This document shows, in pieces, positions 40,160 through 63,315 of a stretch of DNA of 64,000 nt. Position 1 is the stretch's first letter; every line of letters starts with the position of its first letter. Position numbers and translations under genes: made by a program. The stretch comes from an uncultured Acidobacteriota bacterium (GTDB taxonomy: Bacteria > Acidobacteriota > Thermoanaerobaculia > Multivoradales > JAHEKO01), in contig CAVQNG010000005.1 in assembly GCA_963713825.1 (NCBI GenBank), positions 227,503 through 291,502 on the forward strand, written 5' to 3'. The notes under the pieces were generated by a model. The model was not told the origin of the DNA and searched no databases. It saw only the letters and a program-made list of their open reading frames with translations.

Positions 40160-41869
40160 ATGCGCTGGAGCAAGTTCTATCTGTTTACCACCAGAGAGGT
40201 GCCGAACGACGCCGAAGTCGTCAGTCACCAGCTCATGGTGCGAGCCGGGATGATCCGCAAGGCGGCTGCAGGCATCTACACCTATCTGCCGCTCGGATGG
40301 CGGAGCATCCGCAAGATGATGGACATCGTGCGCCGCGAAATGGACGCGGCCGGCGCCGTGGAGCTGCTGATGCCGGCAGTCCACCCGGCCGAGCTCTGGA
40401 AGGAGACGGAGCGTTGGGACGTTTTCGGCGATCTGCTCTTGAAGATGAAGGACCGCAATCAGCGCGACTTCTGTTTGGGTCCGACGCATGAGGAAGTGGT
40501 GACCGATGCGGTGCGCCACGATGTGAAGAGCTATCGGCAGTTGCCCTTCAACCTCTACCAGATTCAGGACAAGTTTCGTGACGAGATTCGCCCGCGGTTC
40601 GGCCTCATGCGAGCCCGGGAGTTCTTCATGAAGGACGCCTACTCCTTCCATGCCGGCGCCGACAGCCTGGACGAAACCTACGAGGCGATGCGGCAGGCCT
40701 ACTGCAAGGTGTTCGAGGACTGCAAACTGGAGTACTCCATGGTCGAGGCCCTGAGCGGCGCCATCGGCGGCTCGGCGTCGCACGAGTTCATGGTGCTTGC
40801 CGACACCGGCGAGGACGCGGTGGTCAGCTGCGCGAGCTGCGGATACGCCGCCAACGTGGAGAAGGCCGAAGCGCGCCCGTTGACTTCAGACTCCTCTGGC
40901 GGGGACCCCGAAGATCTGCTGGAGGTTTCGACCCCGGCAGCAACGACCATTGCCGACGTGACGGGGCTCCTGGAGGTCGGAGCCGAGCGCTTGGTGAAGA
41001 CCCTGGTTTATGAAACGGAGGAGGGCCCTGTCCTGGCTCTTGTCCGGGGGGACCGGGACCTCAACGAGGCGAAGCTGGCGAGCTTCCTGGGTGCCCAACA
41101 CCTGAAGATGGCTGGTGACGAGCTCGTCGAGAGAGTCACCGGTGCGCCGGTCGGTTTCGCCGGGCCGGTCGGTCTGCCGCCAGCGGTTCGAATCGTCGCC
41201 GACGAGTCGATCCGGGAATCCACCAATTTCGTCGTTGGAGCCAACAAAGCCGATGCCCACTTCACCGGCGTCAACTGGGGTCGCGATGTCGATCTGAGCG
41301 AATGGACCGATCTGTTGCTGGTCACCGGAGGCGACGGCTGCCCACGGTGCGATGGCACCCTCGAGTTGCACCGCGGAATCGAGGTCGGTCACATTTTCAA
41401 GCTGGGTACGAAGTACTCGGAAGCCATGCACTGCACCTATCTGGACGACCAGGGGGCCTCGCATCCCATGACCATGGGGTGCTATGGGCTCGGTATCGGC
41501 CGCACCGTGGCGGCGGCCATCGAGCAGAATCACGACGAGAACGGCATCATCTGGCCGCTGCCGTTGGCACCGTTCGAAGTCCTGGTGATGGGTCTGAGCT
41601 CGAGGGACGAGCAGGTGGTGGAGACGGCCGACCGTCTCTACGGTCAGCTCGACGAGCAGGGCATCGAGGTGCTCTACGATGACCGCGACGAGCGACCGGG
41701 AGTCAAGTTCAAGGACGCCGACCTCATCGGCATTCCGGTGCGCTTGGTTGTCGGCGCCAAGAGCCTGGCCGAGGGGCAGGTGGAGCTTTCCCGGCGCCGC
41801 GACGGCGAGAAGATCCTCGTCCCGGTCGAGAACGCGATCGAGAAGATCAAAGAGCTGCTGGCTGGCTAG
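40160..41869 (+). CDS. proS: proline--tRNA ligase
   Basis: MRWSKFYLFTTREVPNDAEVVSHQLMVRAGMIRK... carries class II aaRS motifs, an anticodon-binding domain and an editing insertion. The ORF opens at 40067; ATG 40160 matches the ProS N-terminus. Confidence 0.95.
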   Translation: MRWSKFYLFTTREVPNDAEVVSHQLMVRAGMIRKAAAGIYTYLPLGWRSIRKMMDIVRREMDAAGAVELLMPAVHPAELWKETERWDVFGDLLLKMKDRNQRDFCLGPTHEEVVTDAVRHDVKSYRQLPFNLYQIQDKFRDEIRPRFGLMRAREFFMKDAYSFHAGADSLDETYEAMRQAYCKVFEDCKLEYSMVEALSGAIGGSASHEFMVLADTGEDAVVSCASCGYAANVEKAEARPLTSDSSGGDPEDLLEVSTPAATTIADVTGLLEVGAERLVKTLVYETEEGPVLALVRGDRDLNEAKLASFLGAQHLKMAGDELVERVTGAPVGFAGPVGLPPAVRIVADESIRESTNFVVGANKADAHFTGVNWGRDVDLSEWTDLLLVTGGDGCPRCDGTLELHRGIEVGHIFKLGTKYSEAMHCTYLDDQGASHPMTMGCYGLGIGRTVAAAIEQNHDENGIIWPLPLAPFEVLVMGLSSRDEQVVETADRLYGQLDEQGIEVLYDDRDERPGVKFKDADLIGIPVRLVVGAKSLAEGQVELSRRRDGEKILVPVENAIEKIKELLAG

Positions 41870-44460
41870 CTGTCGGCCAACTGGCTCAGTCGTTGGCGAA
41901 CGAGGTTGGCTCGTGGGTCGCCTGGGGCGGCGCTCAGAAAAGCGCTCAAATGGTCCTTCGCCGCGTCGGGGCGATCGAGTGGTCCCGCATACAGATCCGC
42001 CAGCTCCAGATGGAGGTCGTGCTGCTCAGGGGCGATGCGCAGGGCCTCTTCCAGGTAGTCGGCCGCCTGCTGCCAGTCCTGCTGCCTTCCCGCCGAGATG
42101 CCCAGGTTCACCATGGCTTGCCAGAGGCCGGGATCGACCTGCAGGGCCTTCTCATAGTGCTGGCGAGCCTCGGCGACGCGACCCTGCTGCTCGACGATCA
42201 GCCCCAAATCGCTCCAGGTGTTCGCCTGTAGAGGGTCGATCTCGACAACCTGCCGCAGCCGTTCTTCCGCCCCAGCTAGATCCTGCCGCTGAATTTGGAT
42301 GGCCGCCAGCAGGGACAAGGCAGCCGTATTTCGAGGCTCGGTCATGAGTAGACCATCGAGCTCGGCCTGCGCTTCGTCGAGGCGGCCGGCCTGCAAGTGA
42401 CCTGCGGCCTGCTGAACTGCCGGGCTTGGCGCTGCGGCCGTGGGTGGCGCTGCACCGCTCTTTTGCGACCGTGCGAAGTCGAGGGCGGCTTGGAGGTCTG
42501 GCCTGGGGTCCTCGGACAGGCTCAGCGCGCGGCTCAGGTGGGCCTCCGCAGCGTCGGCGTCGCGAAGTCGTATTGCTAGAAGACCGAGCCTGGAATGAAG
42601 CTCGAGGTCGTTCGGCCAGCGTTCGAGGGCCGCCCGTAGGGTGTTGGCGGCGGCCTGGAATTCCTCTGAGGTCTCCTCGGCCTCGGCGAGGAAAAGGTGG
42701 CCCTCGAGGATTGTCGGATCTTGGTCGAGGGCTCCCTGCAGGCGGTGGATGGCGCTCTCAGTCTCCGCGTCCACCATCTCTGCGAGTCGGGCGTAGTAGA
42801 TGTTGATCCAGGGCTCGGCGGGCGATTGTTGTAGCGCTTCCTCAACCACCGCCCGGGCTCGATCGAGATCTCCGAGCTGCAGCAGTAGGATGGTCCGCTC
42901 CATCCATGCCTTCGTCAAGTCGGGATCGATCTCCAGTGCCTTCTCGGTCAGCTCGAGTGCCTCGGTCCTGTTGCCTTGCTGGTGCTCGATCGTCGCGTAG
43001 AGCAGGAGAATCGAGGCCGGATTGGCATCCAGAGCCAGGAGCCTCTGGATCACCGGCTCGATTTCCTCGTATCGACCGGCGTCGGCCAGGGCCTGCGGCA
43101 GCTCACGAAGAGCGGTCAGATTATCCGGGTCGAGGCGTAGAACTCGCTCTAGCTCGGCAACGGTTTCGGCCGCAGAGTGGGGCCCCCGATCGAAGAAGTC
43201 GAGCAGATCGTTGTGCAGGCCAATCATCTCGCTTGGATCGGGACGCTGGAGGTTCTCGAGTGCCCTGGGCTGGGTGGCCGCCATGTAGCCGAGGCTGCGC
43301 AGTGCCTCAGCGGTCTCGGTATCGAGCTCGATCTGCTGTTCACTCTCGACGATGAAGTTGGCTAGCTCCGCTGCCAGGGCAGCCACCATGTCAGGCTCCC
43401 GCGCGGCCAGATTGATGGCTTCTCCTGGGTCCTTTTCGAGGTTGTAGAGCTCGGGAGTTGTCGTTTGGATGAGCTTCCACGGCCAGCGCAGCAGGCTGTG
43501 CAGTCGGGCCCAGCCATAGGCGCTATAGCCCTGATAGCTCTCCGCATAGAGGGGGTCCGTCGATACCTCGCCTGCCGCAGTCAACTTGGGTCGAAGACTG
43601 CGTCCCGTGGCCTGCGGTCGTGGATCGACCCCCAGGAAGTCGAGGAGAGTCGGGAGAATGTCGATCTGGCTGACGGGCGTCTCGTCTCGAAGTCCTTGCG
43701 GCCCTCCGGGGACAGTCAGGATCCAGGGAATCAGCAAGGTCGAATCGTAGACCAGGATGCCATGTGTCCCCTCACCGTGCTCGTCCAGGCTCTCTCCATG
43801 GTCGCCGACGACGGCGATGACCACGTTGCCGCCAAGGCGCGGATGCTCCAGGAGTCGTCCGATCTGCGCGTCGACATAGGCCACCTCGCCGTCGTAGGGC
43901 CGGGGTCCGTAGCGCTCGGCGAACGGAGACGGAGGTGAGTAGGGGGCATGGGGGTCGAAGAGGTGCACCCAGGCGAAGAACCTCTCGTCGGCCCCGAGCC
44001 CGTCGAACCATTCTCTTGTCGATTCGACGACTACTGCGGCCGGTCGATCCGAGATGCCCCAGCGGGAGGTCGCGTTGGACCCACCGCCGATCTGATCGTC
44101 ATAAGCCTCGAAGCCCTGGGCCAAGCCGTAGGAGCTGCCAAGGACGGCCGCGCCAACGAAGGCTGCAGTCCTGAAGCCCTCGCCTCCGAGGATCTCGGCC
44201 ATGGTCTCGAAGTCTGCCTCGAGTCGGTTGATGCCGTTGTTTCGCACCCCGTGCTGCGGAGGGTAGAGGCCCGTCAGGATCGAAGCATGAGAGGGCAGGG
44301 TGATGGGGGCGACGGCATAGGCGCGATCGAAGACGATGCCGCTCGCCGCCAGACGGGCCAGGGTCGGAGTCTCTACGTCGATGGCACCGTAAGGCTCCAG
44401 CCGGTCGGGTCGAAGGGTGTCGATCGTGACCAGGAGCAGGGACAGCTCGCCAGACTCCAA
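41866..44460 (-). CDS. sulfatase-like (alkaline phosphatase superfamily) plus TPR fusion protein, paralog 2; the N-terminal signal peptide is out of frame
   Basis: 864 aa: LLLVTIDTLRPDRL, PITLPSHASILTG...HGVRNN, VVGDHGESL, then about 400 aa of TPR. The lipoprotein signal peptide (MFSAATQRSMWRQLVALMALTTLYFGSSC, ATG at 44590) lies in another frame, in ORF 44099-44734. This implies a frameshift near 44455-44475, so the functional gene probably spans 41866-44590. Confidence 0.75.
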   Translation of the reverse strand: MESGELSLLLVTIDTLRPDRLEPYGAIDVETPTLARLAASGIVFDRAYAVAPITLPSHASILTGLYPPQHGVRNNGINRLEADFETMAEILGGEGFRTAAFVGAAVLGSSYGLAQGFEAYDDQIGGGSNATSRWGISDRPAAVVVESTREWFDGLGADERFFAWVHLFDPHAPYSPPSPFAERYGPRPYDGEVAYVDAQIGRLLEHPRLGGNVVIAVVGDHGESLDEHGEGTHGILVYDSTLLIPWILTVPGGPQGLRDETPVSQIDILPTLLDFLGVDPRPQATGRSLRPKLTAAGEVSTDPLYAESYQGYSAYGWARLHSLLRWPWKLIQTTTPELYNLEKDPGEAINLAAREPDMVAALAAELANFIVESEQQIELDTETAEALRSLGYMAATQPRALENLQRPDPSEMIGLHNDLLDFFDRGPHSAAETVAELERVLRLDPDNLTALRELPQALADAGRYEEIEPVIQRLLALDANPASILLLYATIEHQQGNRTEALELTEKALEIDPDLTKAWMERTILLLQLGDLDRARAVVEEALQQSPAEPWINIYYARLAEMVDAETESAIHRLQGALDQDPTILEGHLFLAEAEETSEEFQAAANTLRAALERWPNDLELHSRLGLLAIRLRDADAAEAHLSRALSLSEDPRPDLQAALDFARSQKSGAAPPTAAAPSPAVQQAAGHLQAGRLDEAQAELDGLLMTEPRNTAALSLLAAIQIQRQDLAGAEERLRQVVEIDPLQANTWSDLGLIVEQQGRVAEARQHYEKALQVDPGLWQAMVNLGISAGRQQDWQQAADYLEEALRIAPEQHDLHLELADLYAGPLDRPDAAKDHLSAFLSAAPGDPRANLVRQRLSQLADS

Positions 44461-44707
44461 GATCGGCAGCCGAGCTGGAGCCTTCCGACTCCGGTTGTCG
44501 ACTGCAGCTGGAGCCGAAGTAGAGCGTTGTCAGGGCCATGAGAGCCACCAGTTGGCGCCACATTGACCGCTGTGTTGCCGCGGAGAACATGCTGGGATCG
44601 TAGTGCAGAAAGAAACCTCGGTCCAGCCGCTGGCGCTTGATCGCTGCGAACCGATCCCGTACTCTCCAGCCGAGGCATCCGTTACTGAGTGATCCTGGAA
44701 AGAACCG

Positions 44708-46441
44708 ATGGCAAGCACGGCAAGTGAGAGGCATGGGCGATATCTCGTGCTGACTCTCGTGGCTGCGATGATCTCGACGCTTCCCGTGGTTGCGGGGCAG
44801 CCCCGTTTTGCCGAAGTGTCAGCCGAGATCGGGCTCGACTTCGTCCACTTCAACGGCATGTCGGGTGAGCTCTACTTCGTGGAGATGATGGGCCAGGGAC
44901 TGGCGATCCTGGACTACGACAACGATGGCGACCTCGATGTCTACTTCCTGCAGGGTCACATGCTCGGTGAAGGCAAGTCGGTGGAAGACGCCACCATACC
45001 GCCCAAATACCCGCAGCCCTTCACGGATCGGCTCTATCGGAATGACCTGACAAGGGGAGTGGATGGAGAGTTGCAGGCCCATTTTGTCGACGTCACGGAG
45101 CAGATCGGTCTGGCGGCCCATGGCTACGGCATCGGTGTCGCCAGCGGTGACTACGACAACGATGGCTGGACGGACCTCTACCTCAACAACTGGGGGTCCA
45201 ACCAGATGCTGAGAAACACCGGCGACGGGACGTTTGGCGACGCGACCGAGGAGACAGGAACCGATGATCCTCGTTACAGCGCTTCGTCGACGTTCCTCGA
45301 CTTCGATCGAGACGGGTGGTTGGACCTGTTCGTCGCCAACTATGTCGATTGGACCCTGGCGAGACGCAAGGCCTGCACGGGCATGGGTGGGGCGCGGGAT
45401 TACTGCGCTCCATGGGCCTTCGAGCCGGTGCCGGACAGCCTCTTTCGCAATCGGGGCAACGGTCGTTTCGAAACTGCGACCCGTTCAGCGGGAGTGAGCA
45501 GCGAGTACGGCGCCGGTCTCGGCGTGGTGAGCGCCGACTTCAACGACGACGGCTGGCCGGACATCTACGTCGCCAACGATGCGTCCCCCAACCAGCTATG
45601 GATGAACCAGCGCGACGGAACCTTCATCAACGATGGGCTGCTGGCCGGCTGCGCTGTCAATGACATGGGAATGCCCGAAGGCAGCATGGGTGTCGTGGCC
45701 GGCGACATCAACGGCGATGGCAGCTACGATCTGTTCATGTCGCACATTGTCGAGGAGACGAATACCCTCTATCTCAACGACGGCAGCGGCATGTTCAGCG
45801 AGACCACACGCGACAGTGGGTTGGCGTTGCCGAGCTTCAAGTACACAGGCTTCGGAACCGCTCTTTTCGACTTCGACAACGATGGCTGGCTCGACTTGTT
45901 CATTGCCAACGGTGCCGTGCATGAGATCGAGCACCTGGCGCGGGCAGGGGACATCTTTCCGATTCACCAGCCCGATACGCTCTATCACGGCCTCGGGAAG
46001 GGTCGCTTCGCCGAGGTGACCCAGGAGGCCGGAGCTTTCGTGTTCTCGGAAGTGGGGCGCGGAGTGGTCTTCGGCGACCTGGAGAATGATGGCGATTCCG
46101 ACCTCCTGGTCGCCAACAATGGCGGTCGCGCTCGAGTGTTTCGCAACGAGGCGGGCAACAGCGTCAATTGGATGGGTCTGCGCTTCGTCAGTCCATCGCA
46201 TCACCAGCCGCCGGGTGTGAAGGTCGAGGCCGTGCGCTCCGACGGATTCGAGATTTGGCGTCGCAATGGCACCGATGGCAGCTATGCTTCGGCGGGTGAG
46301 CCTCGGGTGCTGCTCGGCCTCGATGCGGCGAACGGACCCGTGCGGCTGCGAGTCCGCTGGCCAGGGGGGCGGGTCCAAGAGTTCCCTGGCTTGCCGCCGA
46401 ACCACTACATCACGATCATGGACAAAGGAGATCACAAGTGA
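44708..46441 (+). CDS. CRTAC1-family protein (FG-GAP/VCBS beta-propeller plus ASPIC/UnbV domain), paralog 1
   Basis: Signal peptide. At least 7 FG-GAP-like repeats (DYDNDGDLDVYF, GDYDNDGWTDLYLNNWG, DFDRDGWLDLFVANY, ...) and a C-terminal ASPIC/UnbV domain (NWMGLRFVS...RVRWPGGRVQEF). Confidence 0.85.
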   Translation: MASTASERHGRYLVLTLVAAMISTLPVVAGQPRFAEVSAEIGLDFVHFNGMSGELYFVEMMGQGLAILDYDNDGDLDVYFLQGHMLGEGKSVEDATIPPKYPQPFTDRLYRNDLTRGVDGELQAHFVDVTEQIGLAAHGYGIGVASGDYDNDGWTDLYLNNWGSNQMLRNTGDGTFGDATEETGTDDPRYSASSTFLDFDRDGWLDLFVANYVDWTLARRKACTGMGGARDYCAPWAFEPVPDSLFRNRGNGRFETATRSAGVSSEYGAGLGVVSADFNDDGWPDIYVANDASPNQLWMNQRDGTFINDGLLAGCAVNDMGMPEGSMGVVAGDINGDGSYDLFMSHIVEETNTLYLNDGSGMFSETTRDSGLALPSFKYTGFGTALFDFDNDGWLDLFIANGAVHEIEHLARAGDIFPIHQPDTLYHGLGKGRFAEVTQEAGAFVFSEVGRGVVFGDLENDGDSDLLVANNGGRARVFRNEAGNSVNWMGLRFVSPSHHQPPGVKVEAVRSDGFEIWRRNGTDGSYASAGEPRVLLGLDAANGPVRLRVRWPGGRVQEFPGLPPNHYITIMDKGDHK

Positions 46442-48375
46442 ATTACGGCGCTCTCAGCCGAGCCTCACGGGGACGATGGGGTGCTCACCGTTGGCTCATA
46501 GCGGCCGTCGTCGTTCAGGTGCTGGCCTGTTCTGGTGCTCTGTGGAGCCAAGAACCCGATGCCTTCGATGCCCTGATCGAGGTCCCGGTACCGGCCCTGG
46601 ACAAGTTCGAACAGGCGATCCAGGACCAGTTGCTGGAGCAGCGGGCCAGCCTCGACGGGCTCGTCTCCAGAACCGACGTGCCACGCCTGGAGCTGATGGA
46701 GTCCTTCGGCAAGACAGGGCAGCTGTACTTCCTCTATGAGGTCTACGAAGCCGCGCAGGCCTGTTTCATCAATGCGCGGACGCTCGCTCCCAGAGACTTC
46801 CGTTGGCACTACTACATAGGCGTCGTCTACAGCCGCCAGGGTGAGGCCGCGAAGGCTATCGACAGCCTCGAGCAGGCGGTTCCTCTGCGCCCTCAGAGTA
46901 TCCCTGCTCACATGCGCCTGGGCCTCCTCGAGTTCGATCACGGTGACCTCGACAGAGCAGAACAGGAGTTTCTCGCCGCGCTCGAGATCAAGTCCGATCT
47001 CGCAGCTGCTCACCACGGCCTTGGAATGGTCGCCCTCCGGCGTGGCGACCCGCAAATGGCGATCCAGCACCTCGAAAGGGCTCTGGAGCTGCAGCCGAAA
47101 GCAACGACCATTCATCAGCAGCTCGGTCTGGCCTATCGCGAGCTGGGAGATCTCGATCGGGCGCGCTATCACCTGCAACTCAACGAGCACGACCCGGTGA
47201 TGTTCCCCGATCCACTCGTCTTTCGTCTGTCTGGCCTGATTCAGGGCAGCCGGTTCTACATCAAGCTGGGTAACGAAGCTCTCAAGGCAGGGCGACTCGG
47301 ACAGGCGATCGACGACTTCAGCGAGGCGGTAGCCAGGGATCCCGAGGAGAAGCTCGCCCAATACAATCTCGGTCAGGCCCTGCTGCAAGCCCAACGCTTC
47401 GACGAAGCGATCCAGCACTTTGAACGAGCGCTCGACATCGATCCGGACTTTCGCGACGCTCACTACAATCTGGGTACAACGCTCAGCGAGCTCGAGCGCT
47501 TCGAAGAATCCGCGGCCCACTTCCAAAGAGCCCGCGAGATCGATCCCCAGGATCGGGAGGCGCGTTTGCAGTGGGCCATGGCAATGGGCCGGGCCGGAAA
47601 GGCTCGGGAGGCGGTCGAAGAGCTACAGGCACTGCGCGCCGAGAATCCTGACGATGCCGGAGTCGCCCTGAGCCTGGCGGCCATTCTGGGGCCCGTGGGG
47701 CAGGTCGATGCGGCCCGCGCAGAGTTGGACCGGGCCCTGTCCATCTCCCGCGAACCGGCGCTCGAGGCCGAGGCGCATTTCCAGCTCGGTCTACTGGACC
47801 AGGGTGAAGGAGCAACAGCGTCGGCGATCGATCACTTCCTGACCGCTGGCGAGCTCAATCCGAAGTTGAGCGCTGCCAACACCGCCGCCGGTGCGCTACA
47901 GGCCCAGCAAGGGGCCTTCGAGGCGGCCGCCGAGAGTTTCGAGCGGGTGGTCGAAGTCGATGCAACGAATGAGATAGCCCGATTCAGCAGGGCCATGGCC
48001 CTGCTGCTGGCAGGCAACTACCAGCTGGCGACCGACGAACTGGAAGAGGATCTCGAGATTCTGCCGCAGAGCCTTCCCCTGCGGCATCTGTTGGCCCGCC
48101 TGCTGGCCACGGTCCCGGACGAGTCAGTTCGTGATGGAGATCGAGCCCTGGTATTGGCGAAGGAGGTCTTCGGACTGGCTGTCAGCGCCGACCACGCCGA
48201 AACCCTGGCGATGGCCTGGGCGGAATCGGGCGATTTCGACACCGCCATCCAGTGGCAGGAGAGGGCTCTGGAGCTGTTGCCTGAAGGCGGAGGCCCCGGA
48301 CAGGCCTCTGCAGCGCGCCTCCGCCTGGAGCAGTACCAGAGCGGGCAAGCCTGCAGGGAGCCGTGGAAGGACTGA
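46438..48375 (+). CDS. secreted TPR-repeat protein
   Basis: Signal/lipobox (VLACSG) and at least 12 TPRs. The GTG start overlaps the stop of the upstream CRTAC1 gene. Confidence 0.75.
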   Translation: MNYGALSRASRGRWGAHRWLIAAVVVQVLACSGALWSQEPDAFDALIEVPVPALDKFEQAIQDQLLEQRASLDGLVSRTDVPRLELMESFGKTGQLYFLYEVYEAAQACFINARTLAPRDFRWHYYIGVVYSRQGEAAKAIDSLEQAVPLRPQSIPAHMRLGLLEFDHGDLDRAEQEFLAALEIKSDLAAAHHGLGMVALRRGDPQMAIQHLERALELQPKATTIHQQLGLAYRELGDLDRARYHLQLNEHDPVMFPDPLVFRLSGLIQGSRFYIKLGNEALKAGRLGQAIDDFSEAVARDPEEKLAQYNLGQALLQAQRFDEAIQHFERALDIDPDFRDAHYNLGTTLSELERFEESAAHFQRAREIDPQDREARLQWAMAMGRAGKAREAVEELQALRAENPDDAGVALSLAAILGPVGQVDAARAELDRALSISREPALEAEAHFQLGLLDQGEGATASAIDHFLTAGELNPKLSAANTAAGALQAQQGAFEAAAESFERVVEVDATNEIARFSRAMALLLAGNYQLATDELEEDLEILPQSLPLRHLLARLLATVPDESVRDGDRALVLAKEVFGLAVSADHAETLAMAWAESGDFDTAIQWQERALELLPEGGGPGQASAARLRLEQYQSGQACREPWKD

Positions 48376-48384
48376 TGTCCAGCC

Positions 48385-50191: not shown

Positions 50192-51358
50192 ATGACCAGG
50201 AATCTCTTGCATGGATCGGCCCCAGGGTCCGCCCTGGCTTCTGGCAATAGACCTCGACGGCTCCTCGTCCCATTTCTGGCAGGCGTGCTGGTGGCGCCAT
50301 TGTTCGGGCCGGCCATAGCTTCGACTCAGGCAGCAGCCTCGTCCGATGCCCAGAGCTCGATGCAAGCGGAGCTCGAGGTACGTCGGCGCTTGATGGCGCA
50401 TCCCGAGCAGCCGGAGATCTATCTCGAACTGGCGGATCTGCAGGTCTCCCGAGGGGCTGAGGAGGAGGCGTTGGCGACGCTGGTGAGCAGTAGCAACCGT
50501 TTCCTGGGCGCGGACGAGCCCAAGAAGGCGGTCCTGGTGCTGAACAAAGCCGCCGAAATGCGTCCGGACGATGCCGAGCTGCAGTTTCTCCTGGGCAAGG
50601 CCCACACTCAGAATCGTGACTTCGAAGCCGCCGAGGCGCCGCTGCGTCGGTCCATCGAGCTGGGCTCGGAGGACCCCTCGGTCCTGGTCTATCTCGGTGC
50701 CATCCTCTGGGAGAGTGGCCGCATGGCGGAAGCCGAGCCGGTCTACCGGCAAGCGATCGAAGCCACGGACCGAGCCTTCATGCCACTGTCACAGTTGGGC
50801 CGGCTGCTCCTATGGCAAGGCCAGTTCGAAGATGCAGCACAGTTGCTGCAGGAGGCGGCCCAGAAGAACCCCCGAGATGTGGGCACGCTCTTCGATCTAG
50901 CCGAGGCTCTGCGAGGCTCGAACCAGGCCGAAGAGGCCATTGCTACTTATCGCCGCGTGGTTCTTCTCGCTCCCAAGCTGAACAAGGCGCACTACGGACT
51001 GGCGATGTTGCTGGCCCGTCAGGGCGATCGTGAGGGCAGCAAAGCGGAGTTCGAGATCTACAACCAGCTCATTCTTGCCGCAGAGGAAGGCAACCGGATG
51101 GCCGAGATCGAAGAAGGTGAGGTCGATCGGGCCGGATTGATGCTGCGACAGGGACAAGTCGAGGCGGCCATCGCCCATCTCGAGAGTCTCGAAGAGACTG
51201 TCGAAGTGGATCTGGCGAAAGCACAGGCCTACCGGGCCGCAGGCAGGCTGGACGATGCGGTGGAGAGCCTGCAGCGCGCCGTTGCCTTCGATCCCAGCCG
51301 TCAGGATGTGCGCCAGATGTTGGCCAGCATTCGCATGGAAATGGCCCAGGGCCAATGA
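50192..51358 (+). CDS. secreted TPR-repeat protein
   Basis: Signal peptide, then TPRs (LGKAHTQNRDFEAAEAPLRRSIELGSEDP...). The ORF opens at 50093. The stop overlaps the start of the downstream CRTAC1 gene (ATGA). Confidence 0.75.
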   Translation: MTRNLLHGSAPGSALASGNRPRRLLVPFLAGVLVAPLFGPAIASTQAAASSDAQSSMQAELEVRRRLMAHPEQPEIYLELADLQVSRGAEEEALATLVSSSNRFLGADEPKKAVLVLNKAAEMRPDDAELQFLLGKAHTQNRDFEAAEAPLRRSIELGSEDPSVLVYLGAILWESGRMAEAEPVYRQAIEATDRAFMPLSQLGRLLLWQGQFEDAAQLLQEAAQKNPRDVGTLFDLAEALRGSNQAEEAIATYRRVVLLAPKLNKAHYGLAMLLARQGDREGSKAEFEIYNQLILAAEEGNRMAEIEEGEVDRAGLMLRQGQVEAAIAHLESLEETVEVDLAKAQAYRAAGRLDDAVESLQRAVAFDPSRQDVRQMLASIRMEMAQGQ

Positions 51359-56867: not shown

Positions 56868-56905
56868 GTGGCCCCTCGCGCAGCTCGATCGGTCGGGAGG
56901 GTCGA

Positions 56906-59116
56906 TCAACCCAGCTCGCGAAGAGCTGGGTCCTGCGGCCAACGGCGAAGAGCATCCTGTAACACGCTGTTGGCGACTGCCGGTTGACCGATACGGCGGA
57001 GGGTCTGGACGGCCTTGGCATGGGCCACCGCGGTGGGATTCTCCTCGACCATTCGTTGGAGGCTGGCTCGAGCCTGTTGCGAGTCGCCCTGCATGGTGTA
57101 GACCACGGCAAGACTGGTGAAGGCGTCCAGCTCTGTAGGGAACAGATCGGTCTCCTTGGCGTAGGCCTCGGTGGCCTTGTCGAGCTCTTCGAGTCGGGCG
57201 AAGCAGCTGCCTCGTAGGTAGTACGCACCACGAATCGACGGCCAGTCGGTCCGGTCACCGAACTCCGAGAGAAGCTCATCGGTGAGGTCCAGCGCCTCCC
57301 TGAAGCGGTTCTGGCTGAAGCGCAGCTCGGCGGCAGTGAGGAGTGGCCCCAGCCGGGAGCCACGGCGGGCTAGAGCCTCCTCGACGATCGGCGCAGCACT
57401 GCCCAGGTCACCCTGGCGAATTCGAATCTGGGCCAGCACGTCGCGACTCTGCTCGTGACCGTCGACCGCCAGCTCGGCGTACTGCGCTGCCTCGTCGAGT
57501 CGCCCCAGACCGAGGAGCGCGGAAGCCATCGCGCCTGCTACCGGCGGAGAACCTCCTGATAGCTCCATGGCTCGTTCGAAGGCTTCGAGAGCCGCCTGTG
57601 TCTGTCCCATCGCCATACGCGCGTGGCCGAGCTGCTCCCAGGCATCGATCAGCTGCGGTTGTTTGTCGGCCACTGCCTGGAAGGCCTCCGCGGCCGCTTC
57701 GTAGCTACCCTGGGCGTAGGCCTCGAATGCGACCTTCAGCTCTTCGACGGTTGCCAGCTGGCTCTTGGGGTCGGCGAGATCGCCGCTGTCGCTGCCGACG
57801 GTCGACCCCAGATACCCCAGAGCGGCCAGCCGGGCGCGAGTTTCGGCATCTTCCTCGGAAGGGGGAGCGAAACTCTGCTCGTAGGCGTCGAGATGCTGGC
57901 GCATCCTGCCGAGAGCACGGCGGTCGTCACGCAGGATGTTGTTGGTTTCTCCCGGATCCTGGTCGAGATGGTAGAGCTCCGGGTCGGGTCCCTGAATGTA
58001 GTGGTAGGGCGGGTCGACAACCGAGAAGAGCTCGCTCCACCCGAAGTGAAACCGCGGGAAGAAGGTCTCGGAGTAGATGGGGCGAGGCTCTCCCTCATCC
58101 TCGCCGGCCAGCAGAGATCGGCCAGGCAGGTCTTGGGGAATGTCGATGTCGAGTAGAGCCGCGATTGTCGGGACGACGTCGATGAGGCCGACGGCCCGCT
58201 CGACCGTGGTTCCACCCTTGTCCGCAGAAGGCAATTTGAGAAGAAGCGGGATCTGCAGGGACTCTCGATAGAGCAACAGGCCATGCTCGTAGTCGCCATG
58301 GTCGTACAGCCCCTCGCCGTGGTCGGAGGTAAGGATGATGATGGACGAGTCGTAGATGTCGAGCTTTTGGAGCTCATCGAGGAGCGCGCCGATCACCGCG
58401 TCGGCGGCCGCCACCTCGCCATCGTAGGCCGACTCGTAGCGTGAGGCGAAGGGCTCCGGAGGATCATGGGGAGCATGAGGCTCATAGATGTGAAAGAAGA
58501 AGAAGAAGGGCTCGCCGGCCACCGATTGAAGCCAGTCTCGCGCCGCAGCGAGGGTGTCGTGGCCGTCGCGCTGGACGTCGCTGAGCAGCGTCTTGGCGCC
58601 GATCACCAGGTGGTCGTCGTAGAAGTCGAATCCGGCATCGAGACCCGCCGTGGCTCGCAGAACGAAGGCCGACACTGCAGCACCCGTGCGGTAGCCGAGC
58701 TTCTCGAGCATCCTGGGAAGGTATGGCAGGCCTTCGGTCCTGAGGCGGTAGCCGGCATTGTCGCGCACTCCGTGCTCGGGCGGGTAGAGGCCCGTGAGCA
58801 TGGAAACGTGTGCCGGCAGGGTAAGGGGTACTTGTGTATAGGCCTGGCGAAAGAGGATCGAGTCGGCCCTCAGGCGGTCGATCGCCGGCGTCGCGACCCG
58901 ATCGTAGCCGTAGGCGGGGAGCCGGTCGGAGCGCAGGGTATCAATCGAGATCAGGATAACGGGGGTGCCCGATGCAGCCGACGGCCCTGCCGCCTGCCGG
59001 TCGCAGGAGAGAAGGCTGAGCCCCAACAGCGCGAGCCAACAAACAACCAGCCCGCGCTCGGTGATCGAGCGCAGGGCCGGAAGGGAACGACTTCGAACGG
59101 TTTTCGTGGTGGCCAA
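56906..59116 (-). CDS. sulfatase-like (alkaline phosphatase superfamily) lipoprotein plus TPR fusion, paralog 3 (intact)
   Basis: Lipobox LLSCDR. PVILISIDTLRSDRLP, VPLTLPAHVSMLTGLYPPEHGVRDN, FFFFFHIYEPH, LTSDHGEGL, then a C-terminal TPR array of about 330 aa. 736 aa. Confidence 0.85.
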   Translation of the reverse strand: MATTKTVRSRSLPALRSITERGLVVCWLALLGLSLLSCDRQAAGPSAASGTPVILISIDTLRSDRLPAYGYDRVATPAIDRLRADSILFRQAYTQVPLTLPAHVSMLTGLYPPEHGVRDNAGYRLRTEGLPYLPRMLEKLGYRTGAAVSAFVLRATAGLDAGFDFYDDHLVIGAKTLLSDVQRDGHDTLAAARDWLQSVAGEPFFFFFHIYEPHAPHDPPEPFASRYESAYDGEVAAADAVIGALLDELQKLDIYDSSIIILTSDHGEGLYDHGDYEHGLLLYRESLQIPLLLKLPSADKGGTTVERAVGLIDVVPTIAALLDIDIPQDLPGRSLLAGEDEGEPRPIYSETFFPRFHFGWSELFSVVDPPYHYIQGPDPELYHLDQDPGETNNILRDDRRALGRMRQHLDAYEQSFAPPSEEDAETRARLAALGYLGSTVGSDSGDLADPKSQLATVEELKVAFEAYAQGSYEAAAEAFQAVADKQPQLIDAWEQLGHARMAMGQTQAALEAFERAMELSGGSPPVAGAMASALLGLGRLDEAAQYAELAVDGHEQSRDVLAQIRIRQGDLGSAAPIVEEALARRGSRLGPLLTAAELRFSQNRFREALDLTDELLSEFGDRTDWPSIRGAYYLRGSCFARLEELDKATEAYAKETDLFPTELDAFTSLAVVYTMQGDSQQARASLQRMVEENPTAVAHAKAVQTLRRIGQPAVANSVLQDALRRWPQDPALRELG

Positions 59117-59148
59117 GAGCGCGACAGCTCGGAAGAGCTGCGGTCCTC

Positions 59149-60093
59149 CTATTCACCCTGCTGCAGATACTCCAGGAAGTCCCTGGCCTCGGTCGCGCGT
59201 GGCGTGTCGGGAGCGAGCTCGATGAGCTTCTCGAAATCGGCCGCTGCGGCATCGTTCTCACCCTTGTTGAGCAGCACCAGACCTCGGTAGTAGTAGGCGG
59301 CCGCGAGGTCGGGGAAGTTCCCGACGACTCTCTCGAACTCCACCAGCGCCTCGTCCAGATTACCGTCGTTGTAGAGATCGATGCCGACGTTCAAATAGGC
59401 ATCGGCGTCGAGTAGCTCGCCTTCCGGGAGCTGATCCATGAAGACTTTTGCCTCGTCTGGGCGCCCCTGTGCCACCAACATGCTGCTCAGGAGCTTCAGA
59501 GCATCGATGTTGTCGGGCTCGATCTCCACGATCCGCCTCAGGGTTGCTTCGGCCTGTTCCAGGTTGTCTTCCTGGTAGTAGGTGCGGGCGATGCCCATCA
59601 GCACGGGAGGGTGATTCTCCACGTCGAGCTCGGCCAGCGCGTTCTCATACTCGGCCCGAGCCTCGGTGGTCTTGCCTTCCTGCAGGAGCTGATTCCCTTG
59701 TTCGAGGAGCTCCACCGACAACTCGGCTGCGGCCTCGGCCAGCACTTCCGGCGGGATGGGTCGCAGAGTGACATTGACGGTGGCGGATCTACCGAACTCA
59801 TTCGCCCCCACTGTTCCCTCTGAAGGGACATAGCCCGGAAACTCGATGCTGACGGTCCACATGCCGTTGGTCAGCCCAAGAAAACTCCACTTGCCCTTCG
59901 CGTTGGTGAAGAAGGGCTCGGGCCCCTCGCCGGCCCGGATGAGAGTGATCCTGGCGCCTTCGATGGGTTCGCCGTTTTCGTCCTTTACGGTGCCTTGTAA
60001 GCGGCCTCGCCCGGCCCAGCCCTGTGCCAGCACAGGGGTTGCCGCGACAGCCAGAAGTAGAGCTATCACTACCAGGGTTGCAACGTGTCGCAT
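59149..60093 (-). CDS. secreted carboxypeptidase-regulatory-like domain plus TPR protein
   Basis: Signal peptide MRHVATLVVIALLLAVAATPVLAQG. A CarbopepD_reg-like beta domain (GRLQGTVKDENGEPIEGARITLIRAG...GKWSFLGLTNGMWTVSIEFPGY) is followed by TPRs. The ORF opens at 60219. Confidence 0.7.
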   Translation of the reverse strand: MRHVATLVVIALLLAVAATPVLAQGWAGRGRLQGTVKDENGEPIEGARITLIRAGEGPEPFFTNAKGKWSFLGLTNGMWTVSIEFPGYVPSEGTVGANEFGRSATVNVTLRPIPPEVLAEAAAELSVELLEQGNQLLQEGKTTEARAEYENALAELDVENHPPVLMGIARTYYQEDNLEQAEATLRRIVEIEPDNIDALKLLSSMLVAQGRPDEAKVFMDQLPEGELLDADAYLNVGIDLYNDGNLDEALVEFERVVGNFPDLAAAYYYRGLVLLNKGENDAAAADFEKLIELAPDTPRATEARDFLEYLQQGE

Positions 60094-60185
60094 GCTGATC
60101 TCCTCATGGAATGTGGGCCGACGATCTGCCTCCAGCGGGGGGAGTGCCGCCGGCCAAAGACGGGCCGAGTTTAGCAGAAAAAAAA

Positions 60186-60208
60186 GCCGGGGGCTCGAGG
60201 CCCCCGGC
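60186..60208 (-). terminator. rho-independent terminator downstream of the TonB-dependent receptor gene
   Basis: On the minus strand: a 9-bp GC stem GCCGGGGGC / GCCCCCGGC with loop CUCGA, followed by U8. It lies 30 nt after the stop of the 60238-63315 gene. Confidence 0.6.
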
Positions 60209-60237
60209 GGGAAAAACAAGTGCTGCAGTACTAGGAC

Positions 60238-63200
60238 TTACCGCCAGTTCAAGCGGACACCGAGTCGGAAGACCCGAGGTGCCAGCGAGGTACTGATCCA
60301 CCCCACGTTGCTGGAGGTGGTGTTGCGGAAGCGATCCAGTACGACACCGTCGTTGAAGATATTGAAGGCATCGATCGAGAAGGTCAGGCCGAGGTTACCC
60401 GTCGTCCTGAACTCTTTTTCGAGCCGCATATCCATGGAGAACAGATCCTCCATTCGGTAGTCGTCGATGCTCGGAGCACCCTGAATCGACCGTGAAATTC
60501 CGTCCAGGCCGGTTCTGTTCCGGTAGTACGGAATCGGATAGCCCTGACGGCCGGTCATGTTGGCGGCGACGTTGAAGCCCCACGGGCGATCCGGCGCCAC
60601 CTGGTACATGCCATTCAAGTTCCAACCCCATTCGGACTGCAGCCAGGACTCGTTGCGGCCGGAACCAGTCGACTGAATGACATAGGTCGAGCCGTCGATC
60701 ACGGCACCAGCAGCCACGCCAGGCAGCACGCGGTTGGGATCGTTGTTGTTGAAGTAGCTCGTCGGCACACTCCAGGTCTCGTCGAAGTTGTACTGGACGT
60801 AACCACGCATCATCCACTGGTTCGCCAGTCGCTTCGTGAAGCCGATGGTGCCACCGAGGTAGTCGATCTCACGGTCACCGTTGGTGAACAGCTGACCACC
60901 CGTGTAGTTCCATTTCGACGGATCCGCCGAAAAGGTGTTATACGAGTAGGTCCCCGCAGGTCCACCAATGCCCGGAATCGTGATGTCGAGTTGGGTCGGG
61001 TCCGTGATGTACTCACTGGCCGGAATCGTCTGCGGTGTCGCGTTGTCGTTGCCGACAGGTGTGAACAGCCGCTGGAAGTCCTGTACATCCGTGACCTTAC
61101 GCCAGGTGAGAGTACCGCTGACCACGAACTCAGGCAGGAAGGCATGCTCGGCACCAAGGATCAACTCGTTGGTGAGCGGTGCATCCATGCCCGGGTCGTT
61201 CTTGTTGGATGACGACAGGGCTGTCGGGTCATTGGGGTTGAAGCCCCAGTATCCCGCCGCTACCTCGTACTGCTCGCCGTCATCGTAGAAGCCCGGGAAA
61301 CCACCCGGATCGTCGACGAAGACGATGTACGCTAGTTGCGCGGACAAGGGACTCGTGCGGCTGATATTGCCCAGCGACATGACATCCGGGAACTGCGAGA
61401 AGCTACCGCGCAGCAGCGTTTTGCGCTCCTCACCGAGGGCGTAAGTAACACCCAGGCGGGGAGTGATGCTCGACCAATTGAGCCCGTCGGCGTCGTTACC
61501 GGCGAAGTCGATGGCAGGCATTTCATTCGGGAAGCCGATGTTGGCATCCACGACACCAGCCGTGTTCTCACCGGACTGGTCGTCCCAACGGAAGCCGACG
61601 TTGAATGTCCATGAGCCCATCGTCATCGTGTCCTGGACCCACAACGAATCGTAATTCGTGATGTTAGGTACGGGACCCTGACGGTAGGCGTAGACCGCAG
61701 CGTAGTCGTCCGCACGGTTCACAGGCAGTCCAAGCGAGGCACCCAGAGCGACATCGCCCGCCACGCCGGCATAGGTGCCGTCGTAGTGGAAGATGTTCCG
61801 GCCGGGGTACGACCAGGCACTCTCGGTGGAAGCTTCACGCGTCCGGCCACCGAACTTGAGCTCGTGGTTCAAGTTCGACGTGGTGAAGAAGTAGGAGCCG
61901 TCGATCTTGATCTCCTCGGTCGGACGGCTGTTGCCGCCGGAAGCGTTGTTGGTCGTGAAACCGTTGCCGTCGGTGTACTTCTCACCGCCGGGGAACGGAT
62001 TTGCAGCGTTGCCCGAACCGGCACCACCCTGCGCCGTCAGCGAGAAACCGCCATCGACAAAGGAGTACTGACCGGTCAGGAAGAGGTTCGAGCCGAAGAC
62101 GTGCGTGTCCTCGATCTTGGTGATCCCCGTCGGACCACGCTGGTTCCAGGTCGCCGAGGGGTCGCTGTCCGGCGACGCGCCACGGCCGATCTTCCGTTTG
62201 TCACCGTTGTTGAAGGAGGCGACGAACGAGTTGGCCGCGGTGAACTGGGCGTTCAACTTGATCGCGGTGCCTTCGAGGATCGTGCGGTCGGACTGGCCAC
62301 CACCGGTGATCCGGTTGATGTCGTTCTGACCCCACGAAGCCCACAGCCAGACGCGATCCCGCCACGCCGGACCACCAGCCTCGAAGCCGAATTCCTGGAT
62401 ACGATCCACCGTGTCACCTTGATAGTTCGTCTGGCCCGGTCCGAGATCGCTCTGGCTGAAGCCAGGATCAGCGGCTTCGAGCGCGCCGAAGTAACCACCA
62501 GCGTCGGTCAGCAGGAAGCGGGCCGTGCCGCGGAACTCGTTGGTACCACGCTTGGTCACCATGTTGACCGAGACACCGGCTGCGCCCTTGCTTACATCGG
62601 GACCACCGGTTGCCAGCTGAATCTCGGAGAACTGGTCGAAATCGTAGTAGGTCGGTGAGGAGCCGATGGCGGACATGTCCGTGATCTGGACACCGTCGAC
62701 AAGAAAGTCGTTCTCGTCGCCGTTGTTGGCCTGGCCACGGAAGACGGCCTGCTGGCCGCTCTCGTTACCACCGACGTTGATGCGGTCGGTCATGACACCG
62801 GGAGCCTGCTGCACGATGGCCCACGGGTCACGCGCGCTCGGAATGCTCTCGAGCTCGACCTGACTGATCGTGGTACCGGCAGTGAGCTTGCGCTCATCCA
62901 ACAGCGGGCTCTCGGAAGTCACCGTGATCACCTCACCAATGGCAGCACTGAGCTGCACCTGGATCGTGGTGCTCTTACCGACTCTGACGCTGACGTTCGG
63001 GTACTCAACGGTGGAGAAACCGTCCAGGGTGGCCTTCAGGCTGTAATTGCCTGGGGCCAGACCGAGGAAACGTGTTTCACCCTGTGCGTTGGTAATCCCG
63101 AGTCTGGGCGCTCCGCCACCCACCATTTCAACATTGACGCCTGGCAGAGTTTGTCCTGCGGTGTCGGTGACCTGAACATAAATGTTCCCGGTCTCCTCCT

Positions 63201-63315
63201 GCGCTACTGCCATGGTGCTCAGCAGGAGCGCAACACCGAAGACAACGTACTTTCGCCACATGCTTCGGTTCATACGAAAAACCTCCTTGGTCATTCGTGT
63301 TTGGAGCTTTCGCAC
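60238..63315 (-). CDS. TonB-dependent receptor-like outer membrane protein with an N-terminal CarbopepD_reg domain
   Basis: Signal peptide. N-terminal carboxypeptidase-regulatory-like domain (GNIYVQVTDTAGQTLPGVNVEMVGG...LAPGNYSLKATLDGFST), a plug-like region, and a beta-barrel of about 750 aa. 1025 aa. Confidence 0.8.
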   Translation of the reverse strand: MRKLQTRMTKEVFRMNRSMWRKYVVFGVALLLSTMAVAQEETGNIYVQVTDTAGQTLPGVNVEMVGGGAPRLGITNAQGETRFLGLAPGNYSLKATLDGFSTVEYPNVSVRVGKSTTIQVQLSAAIGEVITVTSESPLLDERKLTAGTTISQVELESIPSARDPWAIVQQAPGVMTDRINVGGNESGQQAVFRGQANNGDENDFLVDGVQITDMSAIGSSPTYYDFDQFSEIQLATGGPDVSKGAAGVSVNMVTKRGTNEFRGTARFLLTDAGGYFGALEAADPGFSQSDLGPGQTNYQGDTVDRIQEFGFEAGGPAWRDRVWLWASWGQNDINRITGGGQSDRTILEGTAIKLNAQFTAANSFVASFNNGDKRKIGRGASPDSDPSATWNQRGPTGITKIEDTHVFGSNLFLTGQYSFVDGGFSLTAQGGAGSGNAANPFPGGEKYTDGNGFTTNNASGGNSRPTEEIKIDGSYFFTTSNLNHELKFGGRTREASTESAWSYPGRNIFHYDGTYAGVAGDVALGASLGLPVNRADDYAAVYAYRQGPVPNITNYDSLWVQDTMTMGSWTFNVGFRWDDQSGENTAGVVDANIGFPNEMPAIDFAGNDADGLNWSSITPRLGVTYALGEERKTLLRGSFSQFPDVMSLGNISRTSPLSAQLAYIVFVDDPGGFPGFYDDGEQYEVAAGYWGFNPNDPTALSSSNKNDPGMDAPLTNELILGAEHAFLPEFVVSGTLTWRKVTDVQDFQRLFTPVGNDNATPQTIPASEYITDPTQLDITIPGIGGPAGTYSYNTFSADPSKWNYTGGQLFTNGDREIDYLGGTIGFTKRLANQWMMRGYVQYNFDETWSVPTSYFNNNDPNRVLPGVAAGAVIDGSTYVIQSTGSGRNESWLQSEWGWNLNGMYQVAPDRPWGFNVAANMTGRQGYPIPYYRNRTGLDGISRSIQGAPSIDDYRMEDLFSMDMRLEKEFRTTGNLGLTFSIDAFNIFNDGVVLDRFRNTTSSNVGWISTSLAPRVFRLGVRLNWR

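Follow-up and report, generated by a model that had tools for sequence, protein, structure and literature searches.

The DNA analysed here (the window) is a stretch of 64,000 nucleotides (nt) from an uncultured Acidobacteriota bacterium of the class Thermoanaerobaculia (assembly GCA_963713825.1, contig CAVQNG010000005.1, positions 227,503 to 291,502). Between positions 41866 and 63315 it carries 11 genes with near-zero intergenic space: two for sulfatase-fold/tetratricopeptide repeat (TPR) proteins, three for CRTAC1-family proteins, four for stand-alone TPR proteins, one for a CarboxypepD_reg-TPR protein and one for a TonB-dependent receptor. Comparisons of sequences and gene neighbourhoods show this region to be a lineage-specific junction of two envelope modules that are conserved independently of each other. 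Module 1 is a two-gene cassette, widespread across phyla, in which the gene of a secreted CRTAC1-like propeller is followed by that of a TPR partner of ~570–650 aa. Module 2, which many Thermoanaerobaculia-like genomes contain, comprises an Oar-type receptor, a CarboxypepD_reg-TPR protein and one or more sulfatase-fold/TPR lipoproteins.

The two modules were found together in seven of nine close orthologous loci, namely eight fetched loci and the locus L093, which at 76% identity repeats the layout of the window. In L005, the sulfatase-TPR gene and a CRTAC gene starting 43 nt downstream of it share one strand, and in L090, the TPR, CRTAC and sulfatase-TPR genes overlap stop-to-start (4 nt) in a single operon. 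This adjacency supports a functional link of the modules in this lineage, not one obligatory three-family system.

Organization of the gene cluster

The features of the region are as follows.

41866–44563 (open reading frame (ORF) in the window to 44460), minus strand: sulfatase-fold/TPR lipoprotein, copy B; Pfam Sulfatase and TPR; lipobox FGSSC; motif T-L-P-S-H
44708–46441, plus strand: CRTAC_1, secreted; Pfam FG-GAP_3 and C-terminal UnbV_ASPIC
46438–48375, plus strand: TPR_46438, TPR partner of CRTAC_1; Pfam TPR; probable lipoprotein (VLAC)
48385–50013, minus strand: secreted TPR protein; Pfam TPR; signal peptide by eye; lone gene on the opposite strand
50192–51358, plus strand: secreted TPR protein (TPR_50192); Pfam TPR; start taken from the gene call on contig L001
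51355–53040, plus strand: CRTAC_2; Pfam FG-GAP_3 and UnbV_ASPIC
53050–55059, plus strand: TPR_53044, TPR partner downstream of CRTAC_2; Pfam match; homologue of TPR_46438
55059–56867, plus strand: CRTAC_3; Pfam FG-GAP_3 and UnbV_ASPIC
56906–59116, minus strand: sulfatase-fold/TPR lipoprotein, copy C; Pfam match; intact; lipobox LLSC; motif T-L-P-A-H
59149–60093 (ORF to 60219), minus strand: secreted CarboxypepD_reg-TPR protein; Pfam match; no lipobox
60176–60210, minus strand: intrinsic-terminator-like hairpin with nine G-C pairs and a loop of 5, followed by T8
60238–63315, minus strand: Oar-subclass TonB-dependent receptor; Pfam CarboxypepD_reg, Plug and OMP_b-brl_4

The stop codon of CRTAC_1 is overlapped by 4 nt by the start of TPR_46438, so that the two genes form one transcription unit. 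TPR_50192, CRTAC_2, TPR_53044 and CRTAC_3 form a four-gene plus-strand operon, whose junctions are a 4-nt overlap, a small gap and a 1-nt overlap, the last being the nucleotide that the ATG of CRTAC_3 shares with the stop codon of TPR_53044. On the minus strand, the order is receptor, hairpin with T8, the ribosome-binding site GAGGAG, the ATG of the CarboxypepD_reg-TPR gene at 60093, and sulfatase-TPR copy C. The clean terminator that a preliminary description of this DNA had placed after the receptor is thus present at 60208–60176 as an all-GC hairpin of 9 bp with T8 just past the receptor stop codon and before the CarboxypepD_reg-TPR gene, and this intrinsic-terminator-like element would act as a terminator or attenuator. 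No Rfam family matched the window at the gathering score, riboswitches upstream of the receptor included, and a promoter scan gave two sites where 2.9 were expected.

Every domain call of that description was upheld by Pfam, including the CarboxypepD_reg-TPR protein and the CarboxypepD_reg-type receptor. Every product of the cluster carries a signal peptide or a lipobox, as had been stated, and its placing of the system in the periplasm or outer membrane agrees with these envelope-targeting signals. The N-termini were judged by inspection, that is, signal peptides, lipoboxes and the TonB box were called by eye. The count of "at least six secreted TPR proteins" had to be lowered to the four stand-alone proteins and the CarboxypepD_reg-TPR protein. 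A further TPR protein of 617 aa (38274–40127) lies outside the region, has an N-terminal zinc-ribbon-like CxxC...CxxC and lacks a signal peptide. Its gene starts on the base that directly follows the 3-hydroxyacyl-CoA dehydrogenase stop codon and runs at its 3′ end into the proS ORF; a relation to the secreted TPR genes is improbable.

A CRTAC1-like propeller and a TPR partner form module 1

The three CRTAC1-family genes of the preliminary description (44708, 51355 and 55059) were borne out, as all three products matched FG-GAP_3 (144–153 bits) and UnbV_ASPIC (40–57 bits) above the Pfam cut-offs, and a structural match to CRTAC1 was obtained. CRTAC_1 contains the Dx[DN]xDG loops DYDNDG, DFDRDG, DFNDDG, DINGDG, DFDNDG and DLENDG; this motif is the calcium-binding loop of propeller blades (PMC3123361). 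The Asp and Gly columns of the loops were invariant over 53 sequences, and calcium binding is predicted from the motif.

The neighbourhoods of CRTAC genes were surveyed with one genome per species in 80 loci of 34–53% identity, which span all Acidobacteriota classes, Planctomycetota, Gemmatimonadota, Poribacteria and others. A directly adjacent TPR gene on the same strand was present in 41 of the 80. Counted by gene, 116 CRTAC genes had a TPR partner downstream in 24 cases, upstream in 24, and on at least one side in 46. Furthermore, 69 TPR ORFs lay within 3 kb of CRTAC genes compared with 12 in the remaining 544 kb, corresponding to a density ~5–7 times higher near CRTAC. When scored against TPR_46438, the downstream partners, whose ORFs are typically 556–590 aa long, reached a median of 180 bits, compared with 67 bits for other TPR ORFs. 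On these scores, the downstream partners are one specific TPR family with TPR_46438 as its prototype.

The identity matrices of CRTAC proteins and partners (20 pairs) were correlated (Mantel r 0.82), a value reached by 0 of 2000 label permutations, and this correlation fits inheritance of CRTAC and partner as a unit. Shared species phylogeny adds to it, and therefore physical interaction is not proven by the correlation. The window holds two copies of module 1, CRTAC_1/TPR_46438 and CRTAC_2/TPR_53044, along with extra CRTAC and TPR genes. The TPR protein encoded at 48385–50013 is kept as a 542-aa gene in the 85% identical relative L087. Paralogue expansion of ASPIC/UnbV proteins and TonB receptors has been mentioned in passing for Solibacter (PMC3174227), and multiple ASPIC/UnbV copies have similarly been mentioned for Poribacteria (PMC3909097).

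The receptor and its neighbours form module 2

The receptor matched Pfam CarboxypepD_reg (53 bits, residues 45–123), Plug (28 bits, residues 148–247) and OMP_b-brl_4 (73 bits, residues 351–1014). The Oar subclass is defined by a PF13620 N-terminal extension, a Plug and a 22-strand barrel (PMC6434023), and by this architecture we assign the receptor to that subclass. EVITVTS at about residue 127 is likely the TonB box. Homologues in Thermoanaerobaculia are named TonB-dependent receptor, and no solved TonB-dependent transporter matched the receptor in sequence. Over 128 aa, the CarboxypepD_reg-TPR protein shares 28% identity in its N-domain with the N-terminal extension of the receptor (E 6e-6); given this homology, both may bind a common periplasmic partner and dock on it.

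Conservation of this neighbourhood was analysed in a close set of eight loci with homologues of copy C at 49–85% identity (L002–L006, L087, L088 and L090), which are long contigs and a non-random choice. The CarboxypepD_reg-TPR gene was located directly upstream of the sulfatase-TPR gene in six of the eight, and a CarboxypepD_reg-type receptor was located upstream in six; one further locus ends at the contig edge. CRTAC genes, usually several and accompanied by TPR genes, were found within 10 kb in six. A paralogous receptor in the genome of L002 (locus L092) had neither a sulfatase-TPR nor a CarboxypepD_reg-TPR neighbour, indicating that the link is specific to this receptor lineage, and the idea that all receptor paralogues carry these neighbours was rejected.

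We then used a wider metagenome set of 79 further sulfatase-TPR loci (37–76% identity, including L093). Neighbouring ORFs were classed by single-sequence phmmer with the window proteins on stop-to-stop ORFs at our own score thresholds, so that the receptor counts are lower bounds, with divergent receptors under-counted. Tandem sulfatase-TPR genes occurred in 31 of the 79 loci and a receptor in 21. Where at least 4.3 kb of upstream sequence was available (27 loci), the receptor was in the expected place in eight and the CarboxypepD_reg-TPR gene in seven.

Several other genes recur around module 2. A DUF3179 gene is found no more than a few kb from an Oar-type receptor in L005 (2678–4063), L090 (5140–6600) and L092 (17669–19045). 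Divergent upstream of the receptor are proteins of ~710–737 aa with no Pfam match, beside a ~380-aa TPR protein, with two each in L002 (1–3932) and L005 (1–2578) and one visible in L004 (1–1811); the window ends (64000) short of the matching position. In L003 (12456–15911) and L006 (12276–15542), which have no CRTAC genes, a convergent Ser/Thr kinase-AAA_16-TPR gene comes after tandem sulfatase-TPR genes and a Peptidase_S51-like gene precedes the receptor, constituting a second conserved context of module 2.

The sulfatase-fold domain lacks the residues that define sulfatases

Pfam matches supported all three sulfatase-like/TPR fusions named in the preliminary description (34026, 41866 and 56906), of which the one at 34026 lies outside 41866–63315. 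This copy A and the gene pair that precedes it are as follows.

32133–32720, plus strand: extracytoplasmic function (ECF) sigma factor; Pfam Sigma70_r2/r4_2
32746–33348, plus strand: zf-HC2 anti-sigma factor; Pfam zf-HC2
34026–36229 (ORF from 33738), plus strand: sulfatase-fold/TPR lipoprotein, copy A; Pfam Sulfatase split over two ORFs, and TPR; lipobox LFGC

The ECF sigma/anti-sigma pair (32133–33348) is located directly upstream of copy A and is a possible regulator of it.

Copy C matched Pfam Sulfatase (145 bits) as well as SGSH_C. Its AlphaFold model had a predicted local distance difference test score of 89.8, and the top 50 Foldseek matches belonged without exception to the S1 sulfatases or phosphonate monoester hydrolases. 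The whole-domain fold match to such enzymes had E values of ~1e-18 to 1e-19 and a target template modelling score of 0.6–0.69. The domain therefore has the S1 fold with its C-terminal subdomain, within the alkaline-phosphatase superfamily. A PH-x-P segment is also common to copy C and S1 sulfatases, and the metal ligands D59, D265 and H266 are kept, being invariant and aligned to the ligands of solved sulfatases.

In contrast, four of the five sequence-level S1 catalytic features that we tested were lacking. The formylglycine motif C/S-x-P-x-R is absent from all three copies and reads T-L-P-A-H in copy C and T-L-P-S-H in copy B. In HMMER alignments, T99 of copy C stands at the formylglycine Cys/Ser and H103 at the Arg (with 6pt4 and 7oz8), and H278 stands at the sulfate-binding Lys (with 7oz8 and 6pt6). 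Sulfatase signature II in PROSITE is G-Y-x-[ST]-x-x-x-G-K-x-x-H; the segment GYRTGAAVSAFV of copy C matches its start and then places S149 at the Lys and V152 at the His, an assignment made by manual motif register and not by structural superposition. In the manganese arylsulfatase EfAS, a well-studied S1 enzyme, the counterparts of these four replaced positions are R65, K110, H112 and K324, and mutating any of them abolished or drastically cut activity (PMC12421950). EfAS was also considered as a precedent for a Thr-type enzyme and was rejected, since it uses Cys61/formylglycine (PMC12421950).

These replacements are shared by the whole family. D59, T60, T99, H103, S149, V152, H209, H214, D265, H266, H273 and H278 were invariant over 67 sequences (~50% mean identity), so the replacements do not reflect decay. 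Of 120 homologues, 119 carry T-x-P-x-H, as do 147 of 150 representatives that each stand for a separate 50%-identity cluster, and C/S-x-P-x-R was found in none of either set. A search with the catalytic domain returned 20,198 cluster representatives (50% identity) at E<=1e-30. Of the 150 representatives, 140 are at least 600 aa long and so extend C-terminally in the way that copy C does, where this part contains the TPR domain. Some relatives (P0361–P0363) are 1317–1549 aa long with two matched stretches, and the Thr-type catalytic domain is apparently present twice per protein.

No NCBIfam model reached its cut-off in any of nine proteins: the sulfatase model scored 131 bits compared with 481 required, the CRTAC proteins and the receptor had no match at all, and weak matches below cut-off were obtained to MCR-12 and YejM. 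A sulfatase maturase-like gene was not seen among the window ORFs scanned, and we found no description of a Thr-type sulfatase-fold/TPR family in the open-access literature. Family members are labelled "arylsulfatase A-like", "choline-sulfatase" or "sulfatase-like hydrolase/transferase" in the sources.

A Thr nucleophile together with His-rich metal sites is a hallmark of the NPP, PafA, EptA/MCR and LtaS branches, which perform phosphoryl transfer. The local motif T[LF]P.H.S..TGLYP..HG resembles the NPP nucleophile motif. By this analogy, the sulfatase-fold/TPR proteins are probably threonine-nucleophile enzymes with phosphoester chemistry.

The paralogues are ancient

The preliminary description had put paralogues 1 and 3 at about 65–70% amino-acid identity and proposed recent duplication. 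Measured identities were lower: CRTAC_1 and CRTAC_3 are 51.6% identical in amino acids (66% in nucleotides over 1076 nt), CRTAC_2 is 36–38% identical to each of them, sulfatase-TPR copies A and C are 43–57% identical, copies B and C 31%, and TPR_46438 and TPR_53044 29% over 610 aa. The long near-identical stretches that had been cited come down to a 23-mer, GACTACGACAACGATGGCTGGAC, which does occur exactly at 45149 and 55575 with 0 matches expected by chance. It is the longest exact string common to CRTAC_1 and CRTAC_3, codes for DYDNDGW, which is the motif of the calcium loop in propeller blades, and has a copy with three mismatches in another blade of the same gene. Recent duplication was rejected on the paralogue identity of 31–57% and on the 23-mer being a motif. 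Each window paralogue is no closer to its fellow paralogues than to orthologues from other genomes, the similarity being equal, and the duplications are therefore ancient.

Chromosomal setting and assembly

The cluster is chromosomal and not a mobile genomic island, a possibility that we rejected since GC content is flat (0.59–0.65 across the whole window), the flanks are core genes (secDF, relA/spoT, pilM-Q, accC, aroK, ccmEFH, 3-hydroxyacyl-CoA dehydrogenase and proS), and the layout recurs in relatives, where it stands beside proS or thrS; L090 also has proS nearby. An NCBI entry named "CRTAC1 family protein [Thermoanaerobaculia bacterium]" is 97% identical to a window CRTAC protein, and the homologues of the sulfatase-TPR proteins and the receptor are likewise labelled Thermoanaerobaculia. 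Elsewhere in the window, the type IV pilus pilM-Q cluster (6585–12096) encodes a secretin with AMIN and STN domains and is followed by genes for a Big_1/PKD protein (13350–14606) and a TPR protein (14709–15878). A 683-aa protein (28115–30166) consists of HEAT repeats fused to a C-terminal cyclophilin-type peptidyl-prolyl isomerase.

In the assembly, sulfatase-TPR copies A and B are each broken by a single-base frameshift, and only copy C of the three is intact. In copy A, tblastn with copy C placed the frame change at ~34535 beside a GGGGGG run, with the upstream part stopping at 34562 and homology to copy C running on in another frame from 34535; this frameshift would be either a homopolymer assembly error or the mark of a pseudogene. 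In copy B, an extra A near 44459 (CCAAGAT in the window, CCAGAT at 2755–2760 of contig L001 from ERR11523668) leaves the enzyme domain without its lipoprotein signal peptide. Contig L001 is 99.98% identical to the window, with two more substitutions elsewhere in 13.4 kb, and its copy B is intact at 898 aa.

Proposed role and alternative explanations

We tentatively favour, at somewhat less than even confidence, a reading of the sequence evidence in which the two modules jointly form a TonB-dependent apparatus that captures and processes a polymer from outside the cell or from the envelope. Propellers and TPR proteins would serve as binders and scaffolds, the Thr-nucleophile lipoproteins would cleave or transfer a phosphoester-type group and not sulfate, and the receptor would take the resulting product, or possibly these proteins, across the outer membrane; both modules would cooperate at the outer membrane and in the periplasm.

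Several observations weigh against such a joint apparatus. CRTAC genes were present in only four of the 79 metagenome sulfatase-TPR loci (three of 78 without L093), and conversely only two of the 80 CRTAC loci had a sulfatase-TPR gene and one a detectable receptor. The modules can thus clearly work apart, and the nine close orthologous loci are a small sample picked for long contigs. Within the cluster there is no inner-membrane transporter, carbohydrate-active enzyme or regulator with a demonstrated link. The case for phosphoester chemistry consists of residue identities and analogy with Thr nucleophiles of the NPP, PafA, EptA and LtaS type, and the retooled active site could equally bind its ligand and not cleave it. 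We know of no role for bacterial CRTAC1/UnbV proteins. Co-localization in related genomes, which had been proposed as a check, held for close relatives, but these surveys speak against a single three-family system.

The rarity of the combination in both surveys is also what makes a chance or historical juxtaposition of three expanded envelope families worth considering, with CRTAC/TPR and receptor/sulfatase-TPR genes sharing no function. The families are huge (at least 7956, at least 7991 and 2227 among the matches listed, in addition to the catalytic-domain cluster representatives counted above), and in the window the modules lie on opposite strands. However, the adjacency was held in seven of nine loci despite sulfatase-TPR divergence to 49–85% identity, L005 and L090 have the modules on the same strand, L090 even with 4-nt stop/start overlaps, and a paralogous receptor in one such genome is without these neighbours. 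On balance, we regard juxtaposition as rather unlikely, yet as an explanation that must be taken seriously. The preliminary description had suggested a substrate-processing or uptake system, possibly for a complex anionic glycan or cell-envelope polymer. Read in this way, true sulfatases of a system like a polysaccharide utilization locus (PUL) would desulfate a sulfated or anionic glycan before TonB uptake. The Pfam Sulfatase and SGSH_C matches, the carbohydrate sulfatases found as best sequence and fold matches, and the SusC/Oar-like N-terminal extension of the receptor fit that idea, but it loses its main prop in the active site: the formylglycine motif is missing from the three copies and replaced family-wide by T-x-P-x-H, and the Arg, two Lys and signature-II His needed in S1 sulfatases (PMC12421950) have become invariant His, Ser, His and Val. 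The NCBIfam sulfatase score far below cut-off, and a cluster with no SusD-family gene, glycoside hydrolase or lyase, also oppose it, and we consider it highly improbable.

Two further explanations assign the receptor or the enzyme a different task. The Oar-subclass receptor might export the neighbouring TPR, CRTAC or sulfatase-fold proteins to the cell surface or into the medium, as Myxococcus Oar does for the protease PopC. Its PF13620 extension, Plug and barrel match the subclass (PMC6434023), all of its neighbours are exported proteins, and the CarboxypepD_reg-TPR domain is homologous to its N-terminal extension. Yet a single Oar-type exporter is documented and import is the rule among TonB-dependent transporters, three candidate cargoes are lipoproteins, which have a sorting route of their own, and the CRTAC/TPR cassette is mostly without such a receptor nearby, which leaves a secretion device improbable. 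Alternatively, the cluster could encode a scaffold for envelope maintenance or biogenesis, with propeller and TPR proteins acting like TolB/CpoB or BamB/BamD and the Thr enzyme modifying an envelope lipid or glycan like EptA, LtaS or OpgB. The Thr nucleophile, together with a His that lies 12 residues past the Asp-His pair, resembles phosphoethanolamine-transferase active sites in the EptA/MCR-1 numbering, the weak MCR-12 and YejM matches point the same way, and TPR domains are typical envelope scaffolds. Against this, the fold is that of a soluble S1 sulfatase or phosphonate monoester hydrolase with a C-terminal subdomain and not that of a membrane-anchored transferase, transmembrane domains beyond the signal sequence were not seen, and the high copy number with tandem arrays (31 of 79 loci) looks like substrate diversification and not housekeeping; a maintenance role seems quite improbable.

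Returning to the capture/processing apparatus, a bolder form of it, which we regard as speculative and on the whole unlikely, would make the cluster an Acidobacteriota counterpart of the Bacteroidota PUL. Here the transporter would be of the Oar type, TPR scaffolds would take the place of SusD, CRTAC1-like calcium propellers would be the substrate binders, and a very large, so far unrecognized clade of S1-sulfatase-fold enzymes with Thr for formylglycine would have phosphodiester-linked polymers as substrates, for example teichoic acids, extracellular DNA, phosphoglycans or phospholipid head groups. If true, a function would for the first time be assigned to bacterial CRTAC1/UnbV proteins, and "arylsulfatase/choline-sulfatase" annotations would be wrong by the thousands in metagenomes from soil and sediment.

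In soils and sediments, Acidobacteriota rank with the most abundant bacteria, and CRTAC1/ASPIC-UnbV propellers, TPR proteins and Oar-type receptors are the largest acidobacterial paralogue families. A CRTAC protein with a dedicated TPR partner, joined in one lineage to a receptor/hydrolase operon, provides concrete testable pairs and a candidate physiological context. Moreover, a very large acidobacterial "sulfatase" annotation class is probably wrong: the sulfatase-fold/TPR family of ~20,000 clusters lacks the sulfatase-defining residues, and metagenome surveys counting its members as sulfatases would overstate the potential for sulfated-glycan degradation.

Comparison with known systems

The preliminary description knew of no characterized pathway combining the three families, and our search of the open-access literature agreed, yielding passing mentions only and no paper describing this gene combination. 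At the level of single proteins, the sulfatase-fold domain shares its whole-domain fold and metal ligands with S1 sulfatases and phosphonate monoester hydrolases (9fo1, 6pt4, 4uph and EfAS). It differs from S1 sulfatases in having Thr for Cys/Ser, His for Arg, Ser/Val for the Lys/His of GKxH and His for the sulfate-binding Lys, and the window proteins are in addition fused to ~290 residues of C-terminal TPR sequence and anchored as lipoproteins. The CRTAC proteins resemble vertebrate CRTAC1 (ASPIC) and the UnbV/E4 proteins of enediyne cassettes in combining an FG-GAP/VCBS propeller with Dx[DN]xDG motifs and a C-terminal UnbV_ASPIC domain, whereas they have no EGF-like tail and possess a dedicated TPR partner gene; these relatives have no established biochemical function that could be transferred to the window proteins.

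The receptor shares with Oar of Myxococcus xanthus, which is needed for PopC secretion, the PF13620 extension, the Plug with a TonB-box-like motif and the large barrel (PMC6434023). This likeness is one of domain architecture, and in contrast to the Oar system, the window locus has no PopC-like subtilisin nearby.

As a whole, the cluster is closest to a utilization locus centred on a TonB-dependent transporter, either a Bacteroidota PUL with its SusC/SusD pair or a proteobacterial carbohydrate utilization locus containing a TonB-dependent transporter (CUT locus). The likeness consists of the transporter with a CarboxypepD_reg-type extension, the downstream genes for exported helical-repeat proteins and for binding or ester-cleaving proteins of the surface or periplasm, and the diversified paralogues. 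However, the cluster has no SusD, glycoside hydrolase, lyase, inner-membrane transporter or hybrid two-component regulator, and across the 11 genes Pfam gave no match to a family of glycoside hydrolases, lyases or esterases. Since the SusD gene and carbohydrate-active enzymes are absent, the cluster is not a member of the PUL class. Its receptor-adjacent product is instead a non-lipoprotein CarboxypepD_reg-TPR protein, whose Pfam matches are CarboxypepD_reg and TPR only.

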